Assembly (NCBI GenBank): GCA_045606385.1
Contig: JAZURX010000011.1
Coordinates: 37,680 to 101,679, forward strand
From: Bacteroidales bacterium
GTDB lineage: Bacteria > Bacteroidota > Bacteroidia > Bacteroidales > UBA11471
Direction: 5' to 3'
Length of the DNA: 64,000 nt
The translations under genes were made by a program, and so were the position numbers. The notes beneath the pieces are model-generated. The model did no database searches, was not told where the DNA came from, and worked only from the letters and a program-made list of their open reading frames with translations. Numbering within the stretch: position 1 is the first letter of the stretch; each line of letters opens with the position of its first letter. Of the stretch, positions 8,068-54,595 are shown piece by piece.

Positions 8068-9087
8068 ATGGGAAATATAGATTGGTCAAATCTGTCATTC
8101 GGATATATGCGTACAGATTACAATGTACGTTGTTACTATCGTAACGGCAAATGGGGTGAAATGGAATTGTGCTCGGAAGAGACACTCAATCTGCACATGG
8201 CAGCCACCTGCCTGCATTACGGACAAGAGGCTTTCGAAGGATTGAAAGCATTCCGCGGCAAAGATGGTAAAATACGCGTTTTCCGCCCTGAAGCTAACGC
8301 CGAGCGTCTCCAAAGCACATGCAACGGTATATTGATGCCAGAGTTGTCGACCGAGATGTTTGTAAAAGCCGTAAAAATGGTCGTAAAGGCCAATGAACGT
8401 TTCATACCTCCTTATGAAAGTGGTGCATCGCTCTACATCCGCCCATTGCTCCTCGGCATCAGCGCACAAGTAGGAGTACGTCCCTCGATGGATTACTTGT
8501 TTGTAATCTTTGTAACCCCTGTAGGGCCCTATTTCAAGGGCGGTTTTTCGACCAATCCGTATGTAATCATACGAGAATTTGACCGTTCGGCACCGCTTGG
8601 AACCGGTATATACAAAGTAGGAGGCAACTACGCCGCCAGTTTACGTGCCAATAAAATGGCTCATGACTTGGGATATTCATGCGAGTTCTACCTTGATGCC
8701 AAAGAGAAAAAATATATCGATGAGTGCGGAGCCGCCAATTTCTTTGGAATCAAAGACAACACCTATATAACCCCGCTATCGACTTCGATATTACCCTCCA
8801 TCACCAATCGCAGTCTGATGCAACTTGCTGAAGATATGGGTATGAAAGTCGAACGTCGCCCGATACCCGAAGAGGAACTCTCTACATTTGAAGAAGCCGG
8901 AGCATGCGGAACAGCAGCTGTCATTAGCCCTATCGAGCGTATCGATGACCTCGAAAACAAAAAATCGTATGTCATCGCCAAAGACGGAAAACCCGGTCCC
9001 ATCAGCACTCTACTTTACAACAAACTGCGTGCAATACAGTATGGCGACGAACCAGATACCCATAACTGGGTTACTATCATTGAATAA
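8068..9087 (+). CDS. ilvE: Branched-chain amino acid aminotransferase
   Basis: LHYGQEAFEGLKA, LYIRP, KVGGNYAASL, ILPSIT; -7 box TATCTTTG at 8022-8029. Confidence 0.95.
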   Translation: MGNIDWSNLSFGYMRTDYNVRCYYRNGKWGEMELCSEETLNLHMAATCLHYGQEAFEGLKAFRGKDGKIRVFRPEANAERLQSTCNGILMPELSTEMFVKAVKMVVKANERFIPPYESGASLYIRPLLLGISAQVGVRPSMDYLFVIFVTPVGPYFKGGFSTNPYVIIREFDRSAPLGTGIYKVGGNYAASLRANKMAHDLGYSCEFYLDAKEKKYIDECGAANFFGIKDNTYITPLSTSILPSITNRSLMQLAEDMGMKVERRPIPEEELSTFEEAGACGTAAVISPIERIDDLENKKSYVIAKDGKPGPISTLLYNKLRAIQYGDEPDTHNWVTIIE

Positions 9088-47800: not shown

Positions 47801-48220
47801 ATGGAATTTTTAATACATAATCTCGACGAAATCGGTGTGGTAGCTCAACAATTTATACAGGCTATAGGCAACCACAAGATACTCGCATTCCATGGTTCCA
47901 TGGGTGCAGGAAAAACGACATTTATCAAAGCCCTATGCGAGAAACTCGGTGTAAAAAATTCAATAAACAGTCCCACGTTTGCCATTGTCAATGAATATGA
48001 GTCGGCAACCACAGGCGATATTATATACCATTTCGATTTCTACCGCATAAATCGGTCCGAAGAAGCTCTTGACTTTGGTTACGACGATTATGTATATAGT
48101 GGCAATCTCTGCCTCATGGAATGGCCCGAAAATATCGCGACACTGCTTCCCGATGACGTAATAGATGTCACTATCGTAGAACAACCCGACTCCTCCCGTC
48201 TCATAACCATCCAATTATAA
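47801..48220 (+). CDS. tsaE: tRNA threonylcarbamoyladenosine biosynthesis ATPase
   Basis: GSMGAGKTT, SPTFAIVNEY, HFDFYR, EWP. Confidence 0.95.
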   Translation: MEFLIHNLDEIGVVAQQFIQAIGNHKILAFHGSMGAGKTTFIKALCEKLGVKNSINSPTFAIVNEYESATTGDIIYHFDFYRINRSEEALDFGYDDYVYSGNLCLMEWPENIATLLPDDVIDVTIVEQPDSSRLITIQL

Positions 48221-48376
48221 GTCTTACCACATCGCCATCGGGTTGTATTCAGTTATTAACATTACATAGATATTATTTTACAATAAAAATATATCGTCTC
48301 TTATTTGACAAATTGTCAGAAAAAGTATGGTAAGATGATATTTTTTCTATTTTGAACATTATTTTCTATAAATTCT

Positions 48377-48407
48377 TTTGGTTGTTTCGCATAAAGCATT
48401 ACCTTTG
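48377..48407 (+). promoter_or_regulatory. Consensus Bacteroidetes promoter of the ilv operon
   Basis: TTTG (48377-48380), 19-nt spacer, TACCTTTG (48400-48407). Confidence 0.8.
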
Positions 48408-48441
48408 TGCCATTATCTCACAAGAATTGGTAAAAAAGAGT

Positions 48442-48504
48442 ATGATAAGCACATTATTGCATATTATTAGCCTACTATCTATTATTATCGTCGTCGTGGC
48501 ATGA
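48442..48504 (+). CDS. ilv leader peptide MISTLLHIISLLSIIIVVVA
   Basis: 20 codons, 13 of them Ile/Leu/Val, lying between the promoter and the attenuator. Confidence 0.85.
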   Translation: MISTLLHIISLLSIIIVVVA

Positions 48505-48507
48505 TAA

Positions 48508-48600
48508 GAGAAGAAAGGCGTATGCATATATTTGTGTATAAAAACATAAACCATAATAAAAACCTTTCTTCTCACTATTGAAGGAAGGTTTTCCTTATTA
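48508..48600 (+). promoter_or_regulatory. Transcription attenuator (antiterminator / terminator)
   Basis: Terminator AAAACCTTTCTTC (48559-48571) / GAAGGAAGGTTTT (48580-48592); alternative 11-bp helix GAGAAGAAAGG (48508-48518) / CCTTTCTTCTC (48563-48573). Confidence 0.82.
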
Positions 48601-48611
48601 ATATAATAAAT

Positions 48612-50441
48612 ATGAAACACGAATTACGAAGCGCGACCTGCACCGAGGGTCGACGTATGGCTGGTGCCAGAGCCTTATGGCGTGCCAACGGTATGAAAGA
48701 GGAACAAATAGGCCGTCCGATAATCGCTGTCGTCAATTCATTTACGCAGTTTGTCCCCGGTCATGTGCACCTGCATGAGATAGGACAGCTGGTAAAATCA
48801 GAAATTGAGAAACTTGGTTGTTTTGCAGCCGAATTCAATACAATAGCCATCGATGATGGTATAGCCATGGGGCACAACGGTATGCTCTATTCTTTGCCTT
48901 CACGCGACCTTATAGCCGATAGCGTAGAATATATGGTAAACGCACATAAGGCCGATGCTATGGTATGTATCAGCAATTGCGACAAGATAACTCCGGGTAT
49001 GTTGATGGCATCGATGCGATTGAACATTCCAACAATTTTTGTATCGGGCGGACCTATGGAAGCTGGGCATCTCGGCAGCCGTTCGCTCGACCTCATCGAT
49101 GCCATGATAGAGGGCGCAGACAATACAGTAAGCGACGAGCAAGTCGCTGCTATCGAACGATATGCATGTCCCGGTTGCGGCTCTTGCTCGGGAATGTTTA
49201 CAGCCAATTCGATGAATAGTCTTAATGAGTCTATCGGCATGGCTTTACCGGGCAACGGATCTATCGTGGCTACTCATGTAAATCGTCGCCGTTTGTTCGA
49301 AAAAGCGGCACGACAGATAGTCGATAATTGCTACGCCTACTATCGTGATGGTGATGAGAGCGTACTGCCTCGCTGTATAGCTACTCGCGCGGCACTTCTC
49401 AATGCCATGACACTCGATATCGCCATGGGCGGGTCTACAAATACTGTTCTGCACCTCTTGGCAATAGCTCAGGAAGCCGGCGTAGATTTTACAATGGACG
49501 ACATTGATCGCTTGTCACGCAAATCTCCCGTACTATGCAAAGTTGCTCCCAACTCATCGTACCATATGCAAGACGTAAATCGCGCAGGAGGTATTATTTC
49601 TATTATGTATCAACTTGCAAGGCAAGGACTCATCGATACCTCTGTGCGTCGTGTCGATCGCAAAACGCTGGGAGAAGTAATAGAGCAATATGCTATCGAA
49701 GGAACCGCCTTCAGCAATGAAGCAGAGAATCTGTGGAAAAGCGCACCTGCCAATCGTTTCAATATACAACTCGGCTCACAAGATAGCTACTACGACACAT
49801 TAGATACCGATAGAGAATCGGGTTGCATACGAGATTTCGAGCATGCATACGTAAAAGATGGCGGTCTTGCCGTACTGCGAGGTAATATAGCACTCGATGG
49901 TTGCGTAGTAAAGACGGCAGGTGTTGACAAAAGTATCTTTCATTTTTGCGGAAAAGCCAAGGTCTTTGAATCGCAAGAAGATGCCTGTGATGGTATCCTC
50001 GGCGGCAAAGTAGAAAGCGGTGATGTCGTGGTCATTACATACGAAGGGCCTAAAGGCGGTCCCGGTATGCAAGAAATGTTATATCCCACTTCGTACATCA
50101 AATCTCGCCACCTCGGTAAGGAGTGCGCACTCATCACAGACGGTCGTTTCTCCGGAGGCACATCGGGATTGTCAATCGGACACATATCGCCAGAAGCAGC
50201 AGCCGGAGGCAATATCGGATTGGTATGCGACGGCGATATGATAGAAATAGATATACCCTCTCGCAGTATCAATGTATTGGTGAGCGATGAAGAACTTGCC
50301 GTTCGTCGGGACAAAGAAAGTGCACGAGGGAAACAAGCATTCACGCCATATCATCGCGACCGCAAAATATCAAAAGCGCTTCGAGCCTATGCGGCTATGG
50401 TAAGTTCTGCCGATAAAGGAGCTACTCGTATTATCGAATAA
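48612..50441 (+). CDS. ilvD: Dihydroxy-acid dehydratase
   Basis: [53 protein letters not shown]. Confidence 0.97.
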
Positions 50442-50504: not shown

Positions 50505-52202
50505 ATGAATAAAGAAAGAATAACAGGCGCGGAAGCACTGATGCGATCGCTCGAGCATCAAGGAGTAAAAACACTCTTCGGATACCCGGGAGGCTCTATT
50601 ATGCCGGTATTTGATGCGCTCTATGACCACCGCGACAGATTACAACATATATTGGTACGTCACGAACAAGGAGCGACACACGCAGCTCAGGGATATGCCC
50701 GAGCATCGGGAAGTGTCGGGGTATGTCTCGTAACCAGCGGACCGGGAGCAACCAACACCATCACCGGCATTGCCGACGCTATGATAGACAGTACTCCGAT
50801 TGTAGTGATTGCGGGGCAGGTAGCTACATCTTTTTTAGGTTCTGATGCATTCCAAGAGGTCGATTTAGTAGGTATTACACAACCTATTTCGAAGTGGAGC
50901 TATCAGATACGTCGAGCCGAAGATGTTCCTTGGGCCATAGCACGTGCATTCTACATTGCTTCAAGTGGCCGGCCCGGCCCGGTAGTACTCGACTTTGCAA
51001 AAAACACACAAGTCGACACACTCGATTATGAGCCTGTAACCCTCGATTTTGTACGCAGTTATATTCCCGAACCCGATACCGATAAAATGTCTATAATACG
51101 CGCGGCCGAATGTATCAACAAGGCCGAACGGCCTCTTGTTCTTGCAGGACAAGGCATAGAACTCGGTAATGCGCAAGAGCAATTACGCATCTTTATCGAA
51201 AAGGCCCAATTGCCAACAGCATCAACTCTACTCGGTCTTTCGGTTTTACCTTCGGAGCACCCCCTCAATATGGGTATGCTCGGCATGCACGGAAATCTCG
51301 CGCCCAATGTAAAAACCAACGAATGCGATGTACTCATCGCTGTAGGTATGCGATTCGATGATCGTGTCACCGGCAATTTAGCCACATATGCACGTCAGGC
51401 AAAAGTAATACATTTCGACATAGACCCGGCCGAGATAAATAAAAATGTAAAAGCAGATATCGCAGTTCTGGGTAATTGTAAAAATACCCTGCAAGCAGTC
51501 ACAGAGTTACTTCTTCCCGCTACACACAAAGAGTGGATTGCATCTTTTGCCCCATACAGAGAAGAAGAGATATGCAAGGTAATAGAACCCGAAATACACC
51601 CCACAGATAGCGCGCTCAATATGGGTGAAGTGGTAAGGGCCGTGAGCGAAGCTACACACAACAATGCGGTATTGGTCACCGACGTAGGTCAAAACCAAAT
51701 TATGTCGGCACGCTACTTCAAGTACACTCACAAGCGCAGTATCATTACTTCGGGAGGATTAGGAACTATGGGATTTGGTATGCCGGCAGCCATCGGTGCC
51801 ACATTTGCCGTACCCGATCGTACCGTATGTGTGTTTATGGGCGATGGCGGTATACAGATGAATATACAAGAATTGGGCACGATCATGGAACAAAAAGCCC
51901 CCGTAAAAATGATATTGCTCAACAATAATTATTTGGGGAATGTACGTCAATGGCAAGCAATGTTCTTCAATCGCAAGTATTCATTCACCCCTATGGTAAA
52001 TCCCGACTACATGAAAGTGGCCGAGGCCTATGGTATACCGTCTCGGCGTGTCATCGAGCGTAGCGAACTTGCATCGGCCATCGAAGAAATGCTTACTACC
52101 GATGGGCCGTTCTTGATGGAAGCCTGCGTGATAGAAGAAGGTAATGTATTGCCCATGACACCTCCCGGGGGCACGGTCGATACAATGTTACTCGAATGTT
52201 AA
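50505..52202 (+). CDS. ilvB: Acetolactate synthase large subunit
   Basis: FGYPGG, RHEQGA, TSGPGATN, RFDDRVTG, TPP motif GDGG...NN. Confidence 0.96.
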   Translation: MNKERITGAEALMRSLEHQGVKTLFGYPGGSIMPVFDALYDHRDRLQHILVRHEQGATHAAQGYARASGSVGVCLVTSGPGATNTITGIADAMIDSTPIVVIAGQVATSFLGSDAFQEVDLVGITQPISKWSYQIRRAEDVPWAIARAFYIASSGRPGPVVLDFAKNTQVDTLDYEPVTLDFVRSYIPEPDTDKMSIIRAAECINKAERPLVLAGQGIELGNAQEQLRIFIEKAQLPTASTLLGLSVLPSEHPLNMGMLGMHGNLAPNVKTNECDVLIAVGMRFDDRVTGNLATYARQAKVIHFDIDPAEINKNVKADIAVLGNCKNTLQAVTELLLPATHKEWIASFAPYREEEICKVIEPEIHPTDSALNMGEVVRAVSEATHNNAVLVTDVGQNQIMSARYFKYTHKRSIITSGGLGTMGFGMPAAIGATFAVPDRTVCVFMGDGGIQMNIQELGTIMEQKAPVKMILLNNNYLGNVRQWQAMFFNRKYSFTPMVNPDYMKVAEAYGIPSRRVIERSELASAIEEMLTTDGPFLMEACVIEEGNVLPMTPPGGTVDTMLLEC

Positions 52203-52214
52203 TTGATTGAAGTT

Positions 52215-52769
52215 ATGGATAAAATATTATATACACTCATCGTATACTCCGAAAACATAGCAGGTCTTCTCAATCAGATTACCGCCGTATTTACACGTCG
52301 CCAAATCAATATTGAAAGTCTCAACGTATCGGCATCGTCGATAAAGGGTGTGCATAAATACACCATTACTGCATGGACCGACGAGGAGACTATCAAGATT
52401 ATAGTACGACAGATAGAGAAGAAAATAGATGTATTACAAGCCCATTATTTTACCGATAATGAAATATTTTCGCATGAAATAGCGCTCTATAAACTATCAA
52501 CTTCCATACTCGAAAAAGACCCGCGAGTATCGGCTCTTATTCGTAAGTACAACGCCCGTGTGGTAGAGATAAATCCCACCTATTCGGCCATGGAAAAAGA
52601 CGGTTCAACCGAAGATATTACCGCCTTCTATGACGAATTGAAAGCTCTCGACTGCGTCTTGCAATTTGTACGTTCGGGACGTATAGCACTTACCAAGAGT
52701 TGTGTAGAACGTGTGAACGAATTTCTTGCCGAACGCGAGGCAAGGCATCTTAATCAAAAAAAGGATTAA
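52215..52769 (+). CDS. ilvN: Acetolactate synthase small (regulatory) subunit
   Basis: ACT domain ENIAGLLNQITAVFTRRQINIESL, VRSGRIA; start ATG 52215. Confidence 0.93.
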   Translation: MDKILYTLIVYSENIAGLLNQITAVFTRRQINIESLNVSASSIKGVHKYTITAWTDEETIKIIVRQIEKKIDVLQAHYFTDNEIFSHEIALYKLSTSILEKDPRVSALIRKYNARVVEINPTYSAMEKDGSTEDITAFYDELKALDCVLQFVRSGRIALTKSCVERVNEFLAEREARHLNQKKD

Positions 52770-52770
52770 T

Positions 52771-53520
52771 ATGACAAGCAATAAAGAATTGGTCGGGAAA
52801 TATAATTTTGTCGCTGAACCATTCTGCTCCGATTTTACCGGGCACATGTCGCTCAGCACATTAGGTGAAATGTTGCTCAATGTAGCCGAGTTTCATGCTT
52901 CAGACCGCGGTTTTGGCATCATCGACATCAATCAAGGAGCACACACATGGGTACTCTCACGACTGGCATTAGAGTTCGACGAGATGCCTCGTCAGACCGA
53001 GCCATTTGCCATACATACATGGGTAGAAAATGTGTACAAACTCTTCACAGCACGTAACTTCGCCATCATCAACAAGGAGGAAAGAGCTATCGGTTATGCT
53101 CGTTCGGTATGGGCCATGATCGACCTCGAAACCCGTAAGCCGGTCGACCTACTGAGCGTATACGGAGGTGGAATTAGCGACTACATATGCGACAAAGAGT
53201 GCCCCATAGAAGGGATAGGAAAGGTGAGAATAAACAGTACAGAACCTGCGCGAGAGATACAAATGCTTTTCAGCGATATCGACATCAACGGGCATGTAAA
53301 CAGTATCAGACATATTGATCATATACTCGACTTGTTTCCCCTCGATTTATACAAAGAAAAGCGTATAAAACGATTCGAAATAGCTTATGTAAACGAGAGT
53401 TACTATGGCGATACCTTGACATTCTACCTCGACGACAAAGGTTGTGGAGAATACCAAATAGAAGTAAAGAAAAAAGAGAACGGCGATATTATTTGCCGCA
53501 GTAAAGTGTTATTTATTTAG
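52771..53520 (+). CDS. Acyl-ACP thioesterase (double hot-dog fold)
   Basis: WVLSRL and DIDINGHVNS motifs; start ATG 52771. Confidence 0.88.
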   Translation: MTSNKELVGKYNFVAEPFCSDFTGHMSLSTLGEMLLNVAEFHASDRGFGIIDINQGAHTWVLSRLALEFDEMPRQTEPFAIHTWVENVYKLFTARNFAIINKEERAIGYARSVWAMIDLETRKPVDLLSVYGGGISDYICDKECPIEGIGKVRINSTEPAREIQMLFSDIDINGHVNSIRHIDHILDLFPLDLYKEKRIKRFEIAYVNESYYGDTLTFYLDDKGCGEYQIEVKKKENGDIICRSKVLFI

Positions 53521-53548: not shown

Positions 53549-54595
53549 ATGGCAGTTATCAATTTTGGCGGTGTTGACGAAAATGTCGTTACCCGCGAAG
53601 AATTTCCTTTGGAAAAAGCAAGAGAAGTACTCAAAGACGAAATTATAGCCGTAATCGGATATGGAGTACAAGGCCCCGGTCAGAGCCTCAACCTCCGCGA
53701 CAACGGTTTCAATGTAATAGTCGGTCAACGCAAAGGCGGCAAAACATGGGAAAAAGCTGTTGCCGACGGTTGGGTTCCCGGCGAAACCTTGTTCGAAATC
53801 GAAGAAGCATGTCAACGTGCGACTATTATACAATATTTGCTCTCCGATGCCGCACAAATCGAGGTATGGCCACGCATAAAACCATATCTTACACCGGGCA
53901 AAGCTCTCTACTTCTCGCACGGTTTTGCCATTACATACAAAGAGCGCACCAACATCATACCACCCGCCGATGTCGATGTTATACTCATCGCTCCCAAAGG
54001 TTCGGGAACAAGTCTGCGCCGTATGTTTTTACAAGGTCGCGGTCTCAACTCGAGCTACGCCATATTCCAAGATGCCACCGGTCGTGCCAAAGAGCGTGTT
54101 ATTGCCCTTGGTATAGGTGTTGGTTCGGGTTATCTCTTTGAAACCACATTCAAAAAAGAGGTATATTCCGACCTTACCGGTGAACGCGGTACACTTATGG
54201 GAGCTATACAAGGCTTGTTGCTGGCACAATACGAAGTGCTGCGCGAAAATGGTCATGAGCCATCTGAAGCTTTCAACGAAACGGTTGAGGAACTCACCCA
54301 ATCACTCATGCCTCTCTTCGCCGAAAATGGCATGGATTGGATGTATGCCAATTGCTCTACCACAGCTCAACGCGGTGCACTCGATTGGATGGGGCCGTTC
54401 CACGATGCCGTAAAACCTGTATTCGAGAAACTCTACCAAGAGGTAGCATGTGGTAATGAAGCTCAACGTTCTATCGACACAAACAGTAAGCCAGACTATC
54501 GCGAAGGTCTGGAAAAAGAATTGGCCGCACTGCGCGAAAGCGAAATGTGGCGTACCGGAGCTGTAGTTCGCAAACTTCGCCCCGAAAACAATTAA
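53549..54595 (+). CDS. ilvC: Ketol-acid reductoisomerase
   Basis: VIGYGVQG, SHGF, APKGSG, SDLTGERG, CSTTAQRG. Confidence 0.96.
   Translation: MAVINFGGVDENVVTREEFPLEKAREVLKDEIIAVIGYGVQGPGQSLNLRDNGFNVIVGQRKGGKTWEKAVADGWVPGETLFEIEEACQRATIIQYLLSDAAQIEVWPRIKPYLTPGKALYFSHGFAITYKERTNIIPPADVDVILIAPKGSGTSLRRMFLQGRGLNSSYAIFQDATGRAKERVIALGIGVGSGYLFETTFKKEVYSDLTGERGTLMGAIQGLLLAQYEVLRENGHEPSEAFNETVEELTQSLMPLFAENGMDWMYANCSTTAQRGALDWMGPFHDAVKPVFEKLYQEVACGNEAQRSIDTNSKPDYREGLEKELAALRESEMWRTGAVVRKLRPENN

Follow-up and report, generated by a model that had tools for sequence, protein, structure and literature searches.

The E. coli ilvGMEDA, ilvBN, and leu operons are preceded by attenuators (with the leaders ilvL, ivbL, and leuL, respectively), in which a short leader rich in codons for the end product, including the rare CUA, works through protector, antiterminator, and terminator hairpins. 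Attenuators in Bacteroidetes and before ilvD were reportedly predicted by Vitreschak in 2004 and Lopatovskaya in 2010, and because of this coverage, a prior computational prediction of a Bacteroidales ilvD attenuator is likely. Experimental support has come from other systems. In Listeria monocytogenes, Rli60 is a branched-chain leader-peptide attenuator that lies before ilvD and works under CodY (PMC5864092); in Corynebacterium glutamicum, the ilvBNC attenuator has an anti-antiterminator, an antiterminator, and a terminator (PMC11857589). A different type of element, the ilvD RNA motif WRC-18-2, is reported only in Veillonella and has been proposed as a weak riboswitch candidate (PMC8632094).

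Within the Bacteroidetes, the Bacteroid-trp leader RF01692 is a peptide-leader RNA (Weinberg et al. 2010, PMC2864571), and thus peptide-leader regulation has already been catalogued in the phylum. However, this family is concerned with Trp rather than Ile/Leu/Val, it does not match the region described here, and the term "ilvD" does not occur in the accessible supplements of that paper. For Flavobacterium psychrophilum, a 2021 supplementary table of structured 5' regions annotates a "leader peptide attenuation element" ahead of ilvE-ilvD (PMC9723704). In B. thetaiotaomicron, the mapped start of BT_2078 (ilvD) lies 5 nt past TACCTTTG, giving a 196-nt 5'UTR, and a 25-codon ORF, sORF_00173, begins 22 nt into this transcript (Ryan et al. 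2020, PMC7366714). sORF_00173 is an automatic small-ORF candidate, and the main text of that paper contains neither "ilv" nor a description of an attenuator; the data do support a long ilvD leader transcript containing a small ORF. A full-text literature search recovered no paper that describes or tests an ilvD attenuator in Bacteroidales; an earlier note on this DNA was aware of little experimental work there. The accessible parts of PMC13753749, PMC8305728, PMC13370916, and PMC4833913 contain nothing on such an element.

The ilvD leader region

The window, i.e., the whole 64-kb stretch of DNA that was analysed, contains an ilv cluster whose genes and upstream features are collected in Table 1. 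The genes porX and tsaE lie upstream of the attenuator region. The position of the thioesterase gene inside the cluster hints at a link of the operon to branched-chain fatty-acid metabolism. The gene for the branched-chain aminotransferase, ilvE, is found outside the cluster, at 8152-9075 of the window (~39 kb upstream).

Table 1. Positions of the ilvD leader elements and ilv genes in the window
Feature	Position	Strand	Details
Bacteroidetes housekeeping-type promoter	48377..48407	+	-33 box TTTG 48377-48380, -7 box TACCTTTG 48400-48407
Leader ORF	48442..48504	+	ATG to TGA, 20 codons; TAA as second in-frame stop, 48505-48507
Predicted protector (1:2, anti-antiterminator) hairpin	48458..48526	+	24 pairs, -19.7 kcal/mol; 48458-48464/48520-48526, 48470-48473/48516-48519, 48478-48480/48509-48511; inner stem 48482-48507
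Antiterminator 5' arm GAGAAGAAAGG	48508..48518	+	pairs with 48563-48573; -14.0 kcal/mol alone
Small hairpin in spacer	48521..48540	+	species-specific
Intrinsic terminator	48559..48596	+	13-pair stem 48559-48592, -16.2 kcal/mol; tail TTTTCCTT
ilvD, dihydroxy-acid dehydratase	48612..50441	+	NF009103, TIGR00110 above cut-off; proposed first regulated gene
ilvB, acetolactate synthase large subunit	50505..52202	+	TIGR00118
ilvN, acetolactate synthase small subunit	52203..52769	+	TIGR00119
Acyl-ACP thioesterase gene, between ilvN and ilvC	52774..53520	+	PF01643, PF20791
ilvC, ketol-acid reductoisomerase	53549..54595	+	TIGR00465

The consensus promoter claimed in the earlier note was located as the TTTG and TACCTTTG boxes of the Bacteroidetes type. 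Within the window, both strands counted, the two boxes are found in this arrangement at 7 places. Among the 77 relatives in which both a leader and a terminator were called (see below), 62 have a -7 box no more than 70 nt ahead of the leader. When the start offset of B. thetaiotaomicron ilvD (5 nt past the -7 box) is applied to this promoter, transcription is predicted to begin at ~A48412, which would give a 200-nt leader before ilvD, versus 196 nt in that species. An inverted repeat, TGACAA-A-TTGTCA (48306-48318), precedes the -33 box by ~60 nt, and by eye a related AYAAATTGAYAG-like block occupies the equivalent place in same-genus loci. This repeat is possibly a candidate transcription-factor site that would provide a second layer of control.

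The leader ORF starts with an ATG that has an A at -3. Its codons are those given in the earlier note: 6 Ile, 4 Leu (TTA TTG and the tandem CTA CTA), and 3 Val. At the genome Ile/Leu/Val frequency of 0.225, the probability of at least 13 such codons out of 19 is ~2.5e-5, a value for a single ORF that is uncorrected for the number of ORFs. The leader is indeed missing from the ORF track, as had been remarked, presumably because it falls below the length cut-off of such lists. The peptide has no match in Pfam.

The antiterminator arm begins 3 nt past the leader stop. It is a perfect reverse complement of 48563-48573, where 9 nt belong to the 5' arm of the terminator and 2 nt to its loop, and none of 200 shuffles equals this fold (z -6.98); the 11-bp pairing reported in the earlier note thus stands. 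The 13-bp terminator also stands, at the reported 19 nt before the ilvD ATG (48612), with a qualification: what follows the stem's last G-C pair is an interrupted U-tract (TTTTCCTT). The stem has one G.U and 4 G-C among its pairs (z -4.57), and the 3' end of a terminated transcript is predicted at ~48595-48596. In folding, the small hairpin in the spacer is a rival of the protector's outer stem, and within the antiterminator it is stacked.

Three RNA sequencing runs are listed, one of which contains 0.35 of the words. In the contigs of that run, a metatranscriptome, a 464-nt piece with 1 difference extends from 48559 to 49022, spanning the terminator into ilvD, and 48205 to 48507 is uncovered; these contigs show neither ends nor strand and may be DNA, and no conclusion is based on them.

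When the Rfam covariance models were run on the region, there were 6 weak matches, all to unrelated families and far below the gathering score. No leader family (Leu, Thr, His, Trp, Bacteroid-trp, and others), T-box, or riboswitch was found at the gathering score. Nine related ilvD leaders together with the leuA leader described below likewise gave no Rfam leader family; one same-order locus has a match to the Bacteroidales SRP RNA.

Conservation among the Bacteroidales

Upstream DNA was taken from every genome with an ilvD match; such matches were obtained for 30 of the 41 near relatives and for 96 of the 251 genomes sampled across the order (104 distinct genomes). The caller required an ORF 10-35 codons long in which some stretch of 10 codons has 7 or more for Ile/Leu/Val, followed by a terminator within 110 nt. 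By this rule, a leader is present upstream of ilvD in 90 of the 104 genomes, and a leader with a terminator in 77, representing 45 of 58 families; a search of Bacteroidales ilvD leaders for a like layout, as proposed in the earlier note, was therefore positive in 77/104. Applied to the regions upstream of long ORFs in the source genome, a set that includes operon-internal coding DNA and is incompletely matched, the same rule calls a leader at 124/1310 and a leader plus terminator at 3/1310, with ilvD among the 3. The caller errs both ways, and all rows were kept in the counts: the element is visible by eye in several of the 27 uncalled genomes (e.g., G020, G040, G116, G169, G222, G049, G205, and G230), three calls of the "leader only" kind seem to be spurious (G097, G162, and G163), and there are doubtful picks among the 77 (G110, G170, and G193). 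A phylum-wide search matched 65 of 201 genomes, mostly through distant ilvD homologues of ~53% identity; the counts cover the 104 order-level genomes, leaving out 27 new phylum-wide loci.

The leaders of the 77 relatives have a median of 21 codons, of which 58% are for Ile, Leu, or Val. Their composition is kept while their sequence is free, all synonymous codons are used, and the place of the stop is fixed with respect to the antiterminator arm. An A at -3 is found for 47/73 leader ATGs versus 226/559 other upstream ATGs. CTA, the Leu codon that the source genome uses least (6%, the only reference used for this comparison), accounts for 63 of the 280 Leu codons in the relatives' leaders. In alignment, the same-order ilvD leaders resemble that of B. 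thetaiotaomicron, whose sORF_00173 lies at the orthologous position and shares Leu-His-Ile-Ile and a run of Val (PMC7366714). Together with the promoter type, the presence of porX, and the SRP RNA of the same-order locus, this resemblance points to Bacteroidales as the order of the source genome.

In one same-genus locus (L014, genome G003), the promoter, the arm, a GTTATGCAG block, and the terminator are kept ~170-20 nt upstream of ilvD, and this region showed no clear Ile/Leu/Val leader starting with ATG. The leader there has possibly decayed or been frameshifted, or the assembly may be in error.

The antiterminator is conserved as a pairing. A duplex that reaches -8 kcal/mol or better and joins the region around the stop codon to the 5' strand of the terminator is found in 72/77 relatives; it beats shuffles (p<=0.05) in 61/77, and the cognate duplex beats the mean of non-cognate terminators in 70/77. 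At the third position of the antiterminator, the arm and the two strands of the terminator switch in concert (T/A/A in 32, A/T/T in 18, and G/C/C in 3 of 73, with a mismatch in 11), a count that was anchored on the GG/CC core, so that pairing of the core itself is by construction. In an alignment of 29 sequences, picked by eye from the 77 and including 9 of the same genus, 92% of 232 antiterminator cells are paired with 8 double changes, a result reached by 0/500 shuffles.

The location of the arm relative to the stop codon is also characteristic. In 28/73 relatives, the 8-nt core of the arm begins 1 nt inside the stop codon, and in 56/73 it begins between -3 and +9 of the first base of the stop, often using the TGA itself; in 11/73 (offsets -8 or lower), the arm itself is translated as part of the leader. 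From these positions, direct masking of the arm by the ribosome is judged to be a conserved feature, in line with the earlier reading. A ribosome covers up to 12 nt past a stop (PMC4833913). The arm and the terminator are separated by a median of 34 nt in the relatives. A consensus pause site for RNA polymerase is present in 21/77 of these spacers versus 19.2 expected from shuffles, i.e., without enrichment.

Predicted alternative folds and a model for the proposed switch

Folding predicts a chain of mutually exclusive structures: the protector (48458-48526), the antiterminator (48508-48518/48563-48573), and the terminator (48559-48592), which lies between the leader and the first gene and excludes the antiterminator. 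The protector joins codons 6-17 to the stop, to 7 of the arm's 11 bases, and to the 8 bases past the arm. For the nascent leader no fold is better (z -2.48, with 1/200 shuffles as good), and in the relatives, a conserved GTATG-like block 3' of the arm is the pairing partner of Leu-His-Ile codons. Within the 29-sequence alignment, 85% of 170 protector cells are paired, with 16 double changes; slid controls reach at most 58%. By three of five measures of covariation, 0/500 shuffles do as well, and by the other two, 77/500 and 33/500. The pair that covaries best involves the synonymous third base of a Leu codon (A-U in 15, G-C in 9, and G-U in 3), although 8 of its 9 G-C cells come from the genus of the source genome.

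Using one genome per family, leader-arm pairing beats synonymous recodings (p<=0.05) in 14/45 and has z<0 in 38/45. Before the terminator is made, the arm is paired to the upstream leader with a probability of at least 0.5 in 42/45 families, a figure that has no null. The outer stem alone is weak across the families: it reaches p<=0.05 in 4/45, the same as a spacer control, with a median z of -0.73 versus +0.27 (Wilcoxon p 0.014). For the source genome, 48/1000 synonymous recodings fold as well as the protector and the duplex p is 0.065, which is borderline. At equilibrium and with no ribosome, the probability of the antiterminator is 1.0 when the transcript ends at 48575 or 48580 and 0.83 at 48586, and that of the terminator is 0.998 at 48592. 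Consequently, the antiterminator displaces the protector at equilibrium once 48563-48573 has emerged, and the protector could act only kinetically. Taken together, these comparisons argue, with moderate confidence, that the predicted protector is real and selected; its covariation is moderate, and in the source genome alone it is borderline. The earlier note had seen no separate 1:2 hairpin and had proposed a minimal design, neither of which is borne out given this 24-pair fold and its compensatory changes in relatives; its interpretation as an Ile/Leu/Val attenuator of the ilv operon with masking at the stop codon is supported.

The region is thus most probably a classical three-hairpin, ribosome-mediated transcription attenuator, which would allow expression of ilvD-ilvB-ilvN-thioesterase-ilvC upon a shortage of charged tRNAs for Ile, Leu, or Val. 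The promoter, leader, arm, and terminator are seen in the sequence and the hairpins are predicted by folding; from these we infer translation of the leader, termination, and a response to amino acids. When amino acids are plentiful, the ribosome would reach the TGA, masking about half of the antiterminator arm; after its release, the protector would re-form and sequester the arm during transcription of the 40-nt spacer and the terminator, and with the arm held in this way, the terminator would form. Under starvation, the ribosome would stall at about codons 9-16 (Ile9, CTA CTA, and Ile14-16), or less cleanly at Val17-19, and would occupy the 5' side of the protector, leaving the arm free to capture the 5' strand of the terminator and allow read-through. 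A folding model in which a ribosome footprint, assumed to extend from -16 to +11 around the A site, was masked gives values that fit this scheme. With the A site at codons 9-16, pairing of the arm to the leader falls from 0.60 to 0.03-0.25, and with the A site on the Val codons it is 0.26-0.46; the probability of the antiterminator is at least 0.98 at codons 2-19 and 0.01 with the A site on the TGA. In the model, then, stalling at Ile/Leu/Val codons would give read-through and a finished leader would give termination, and the masking of the arm by a ribosome at the stop, as put forward in the earlier note, is reproduced. A further idea, that the conserved Leu-His-Ile codons at the base of the protector double as a His sensor so that histidine shortage would also open the ilv operon across Bacteroidales, appears decidedly unlikely; a His codon is present in 38/77 leaders, and in the model the outer protector stem is lost when the ribosome stalls at His7.

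The minimal design of the earlier note would dispense with the protector: only the direct masking of the arm by the ribosome at the stop would matter, and the leader-arm pairing would be incidental or dispensable. Such a scheme is consistent with an arm that lies inside the footprint of a stop-codon ribosome in most relatives and is even translated within the leader in some, with the loss of the protector to the antiterminator at equilibrium, and with the borderline significance of the protector in the source genome. However, it leaves unexplained why the best fold of the nascent leader is the protector, why double changes preserve its pairs (one of them at a synonymous Leu position), and why pairing exceeds that of synonymous recodings in 14 of the 45 families. 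In addition, given the median 34-nt spacer, a released ribosome would presumably leave the arm free unless something held it. We consider this scheme rather unlikely.

The switch could also be run by something other than the ribosome (an RNA-binding protein, a metabolite or tRNA-binding RNA), or the terminator could be constitutive, with the Ile/Leu/Val-rich ORF encoding a small membrane peptide or being a by-product of constraints on the RNA; hydrophobic short ORFs are in fact common, given the 124 leader calls among the 1310 upstream regions of the source genome at 7 or more Ile/Leu/Val in 10 codons. Yet the leaders of the relatives maintain their Ile/Leu/Val content without a kept sequence and with all synonymous codons in use, their stop is fixed relative to the arm, and there is no T-box, riboswitch, or Pfam match, all of which make such a switch highly improbable. 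A chance arrangement without any regulatory role might be imagined for an A+T-rich intergenic region, where ATT and TTA codons and hairpins arise easily. Because of the conservation counts (77/104 relatives versus 3/1310 ORFs of the same genome), chance is very unlikely indeed, close to negligible; the fold z-scores of -4.6 to -7.0 and the compensatory changes in both the antiterminator and the protector also speak against it. The classical attenuator thus remains the preferred reading.

Relation to described attenuators

The same genome has a separate leuA-leuC-leuD-cimA-like-leuB cluster, outside the window, with a candidate leader of its own (L143:75-250; G000:C31, ~2524-2700). This leader has a -7 box and a 26-codon ORF with 3 Leu codons (2 of them CTA) and a run of Ile, and its terminator (z -4.77) shares a CCTTTCTC...GAAAGG core; antiterminator and protector folds in the leuA leader are no better than shuffles. 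Farther upstream, at G000:C31:2036-2290, there are three imperfect, GTAG-tagged palindromic units that resemble the REP type.

The ilvD element is real, well conserved, and most probably a classical Ile/Leu/Val attenuator; it has no Rfam model. The supposed twist of a missing protector, the sole claim that would have made it unusual, is unsupported. What is gained is the filling of an annotation gap, an order-wide attenuator family that lacks an Rfam model, and the importance of this is modest. The branched-chain amino-acid output of these bacteria is relevant to their hosts, and their membranes contain branched fatty acids. The attenuator offers a ready reporter for the tightness of transcription-translation coupling in Bacteroidales, as well as an obvious target where branched-chain synthesis is to be de-repressed in a laboratory strain.

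Like the E. coli ilv and leu leaders, the element combines leader-peptide logic with rare Leu CUA codons. By Rfam, it has no detected sequence similarity to them; it differs in having a Bacteroidetes promoter and no evident Shine-Dalgarno sequence, and its antiterminator is long-range, with a 44-nt loop. Rli60 (PMC5864092) and the C. glutamicum ilvBNC attenuator (PMC11857589) belong to other phyla, and the likeness is one of layout, by their published descriptions. Among the closest described elements is that of F. psychrophilum, which comes from the same phylum and has an Ile-rich leader with branched-chain synthesis genes downstream (PMC9723704). It differs in lying before ilvE and in having several leader-terminator units in tandem, and it is known from annotation; by eye, rather than from a sequence alignment, its terminator core is the same as our alignment consensus, AAGCCTTTCTC...GAGAAAGGCTTTT (PMC9723704). 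The mechanism is therefore of the textbook type and the layout is common in the order, with an example of the same class annotated in F. psychrophilum, and given this wide conservation, the ilvD switch is an ordinary member of a well-described class of attenuators.
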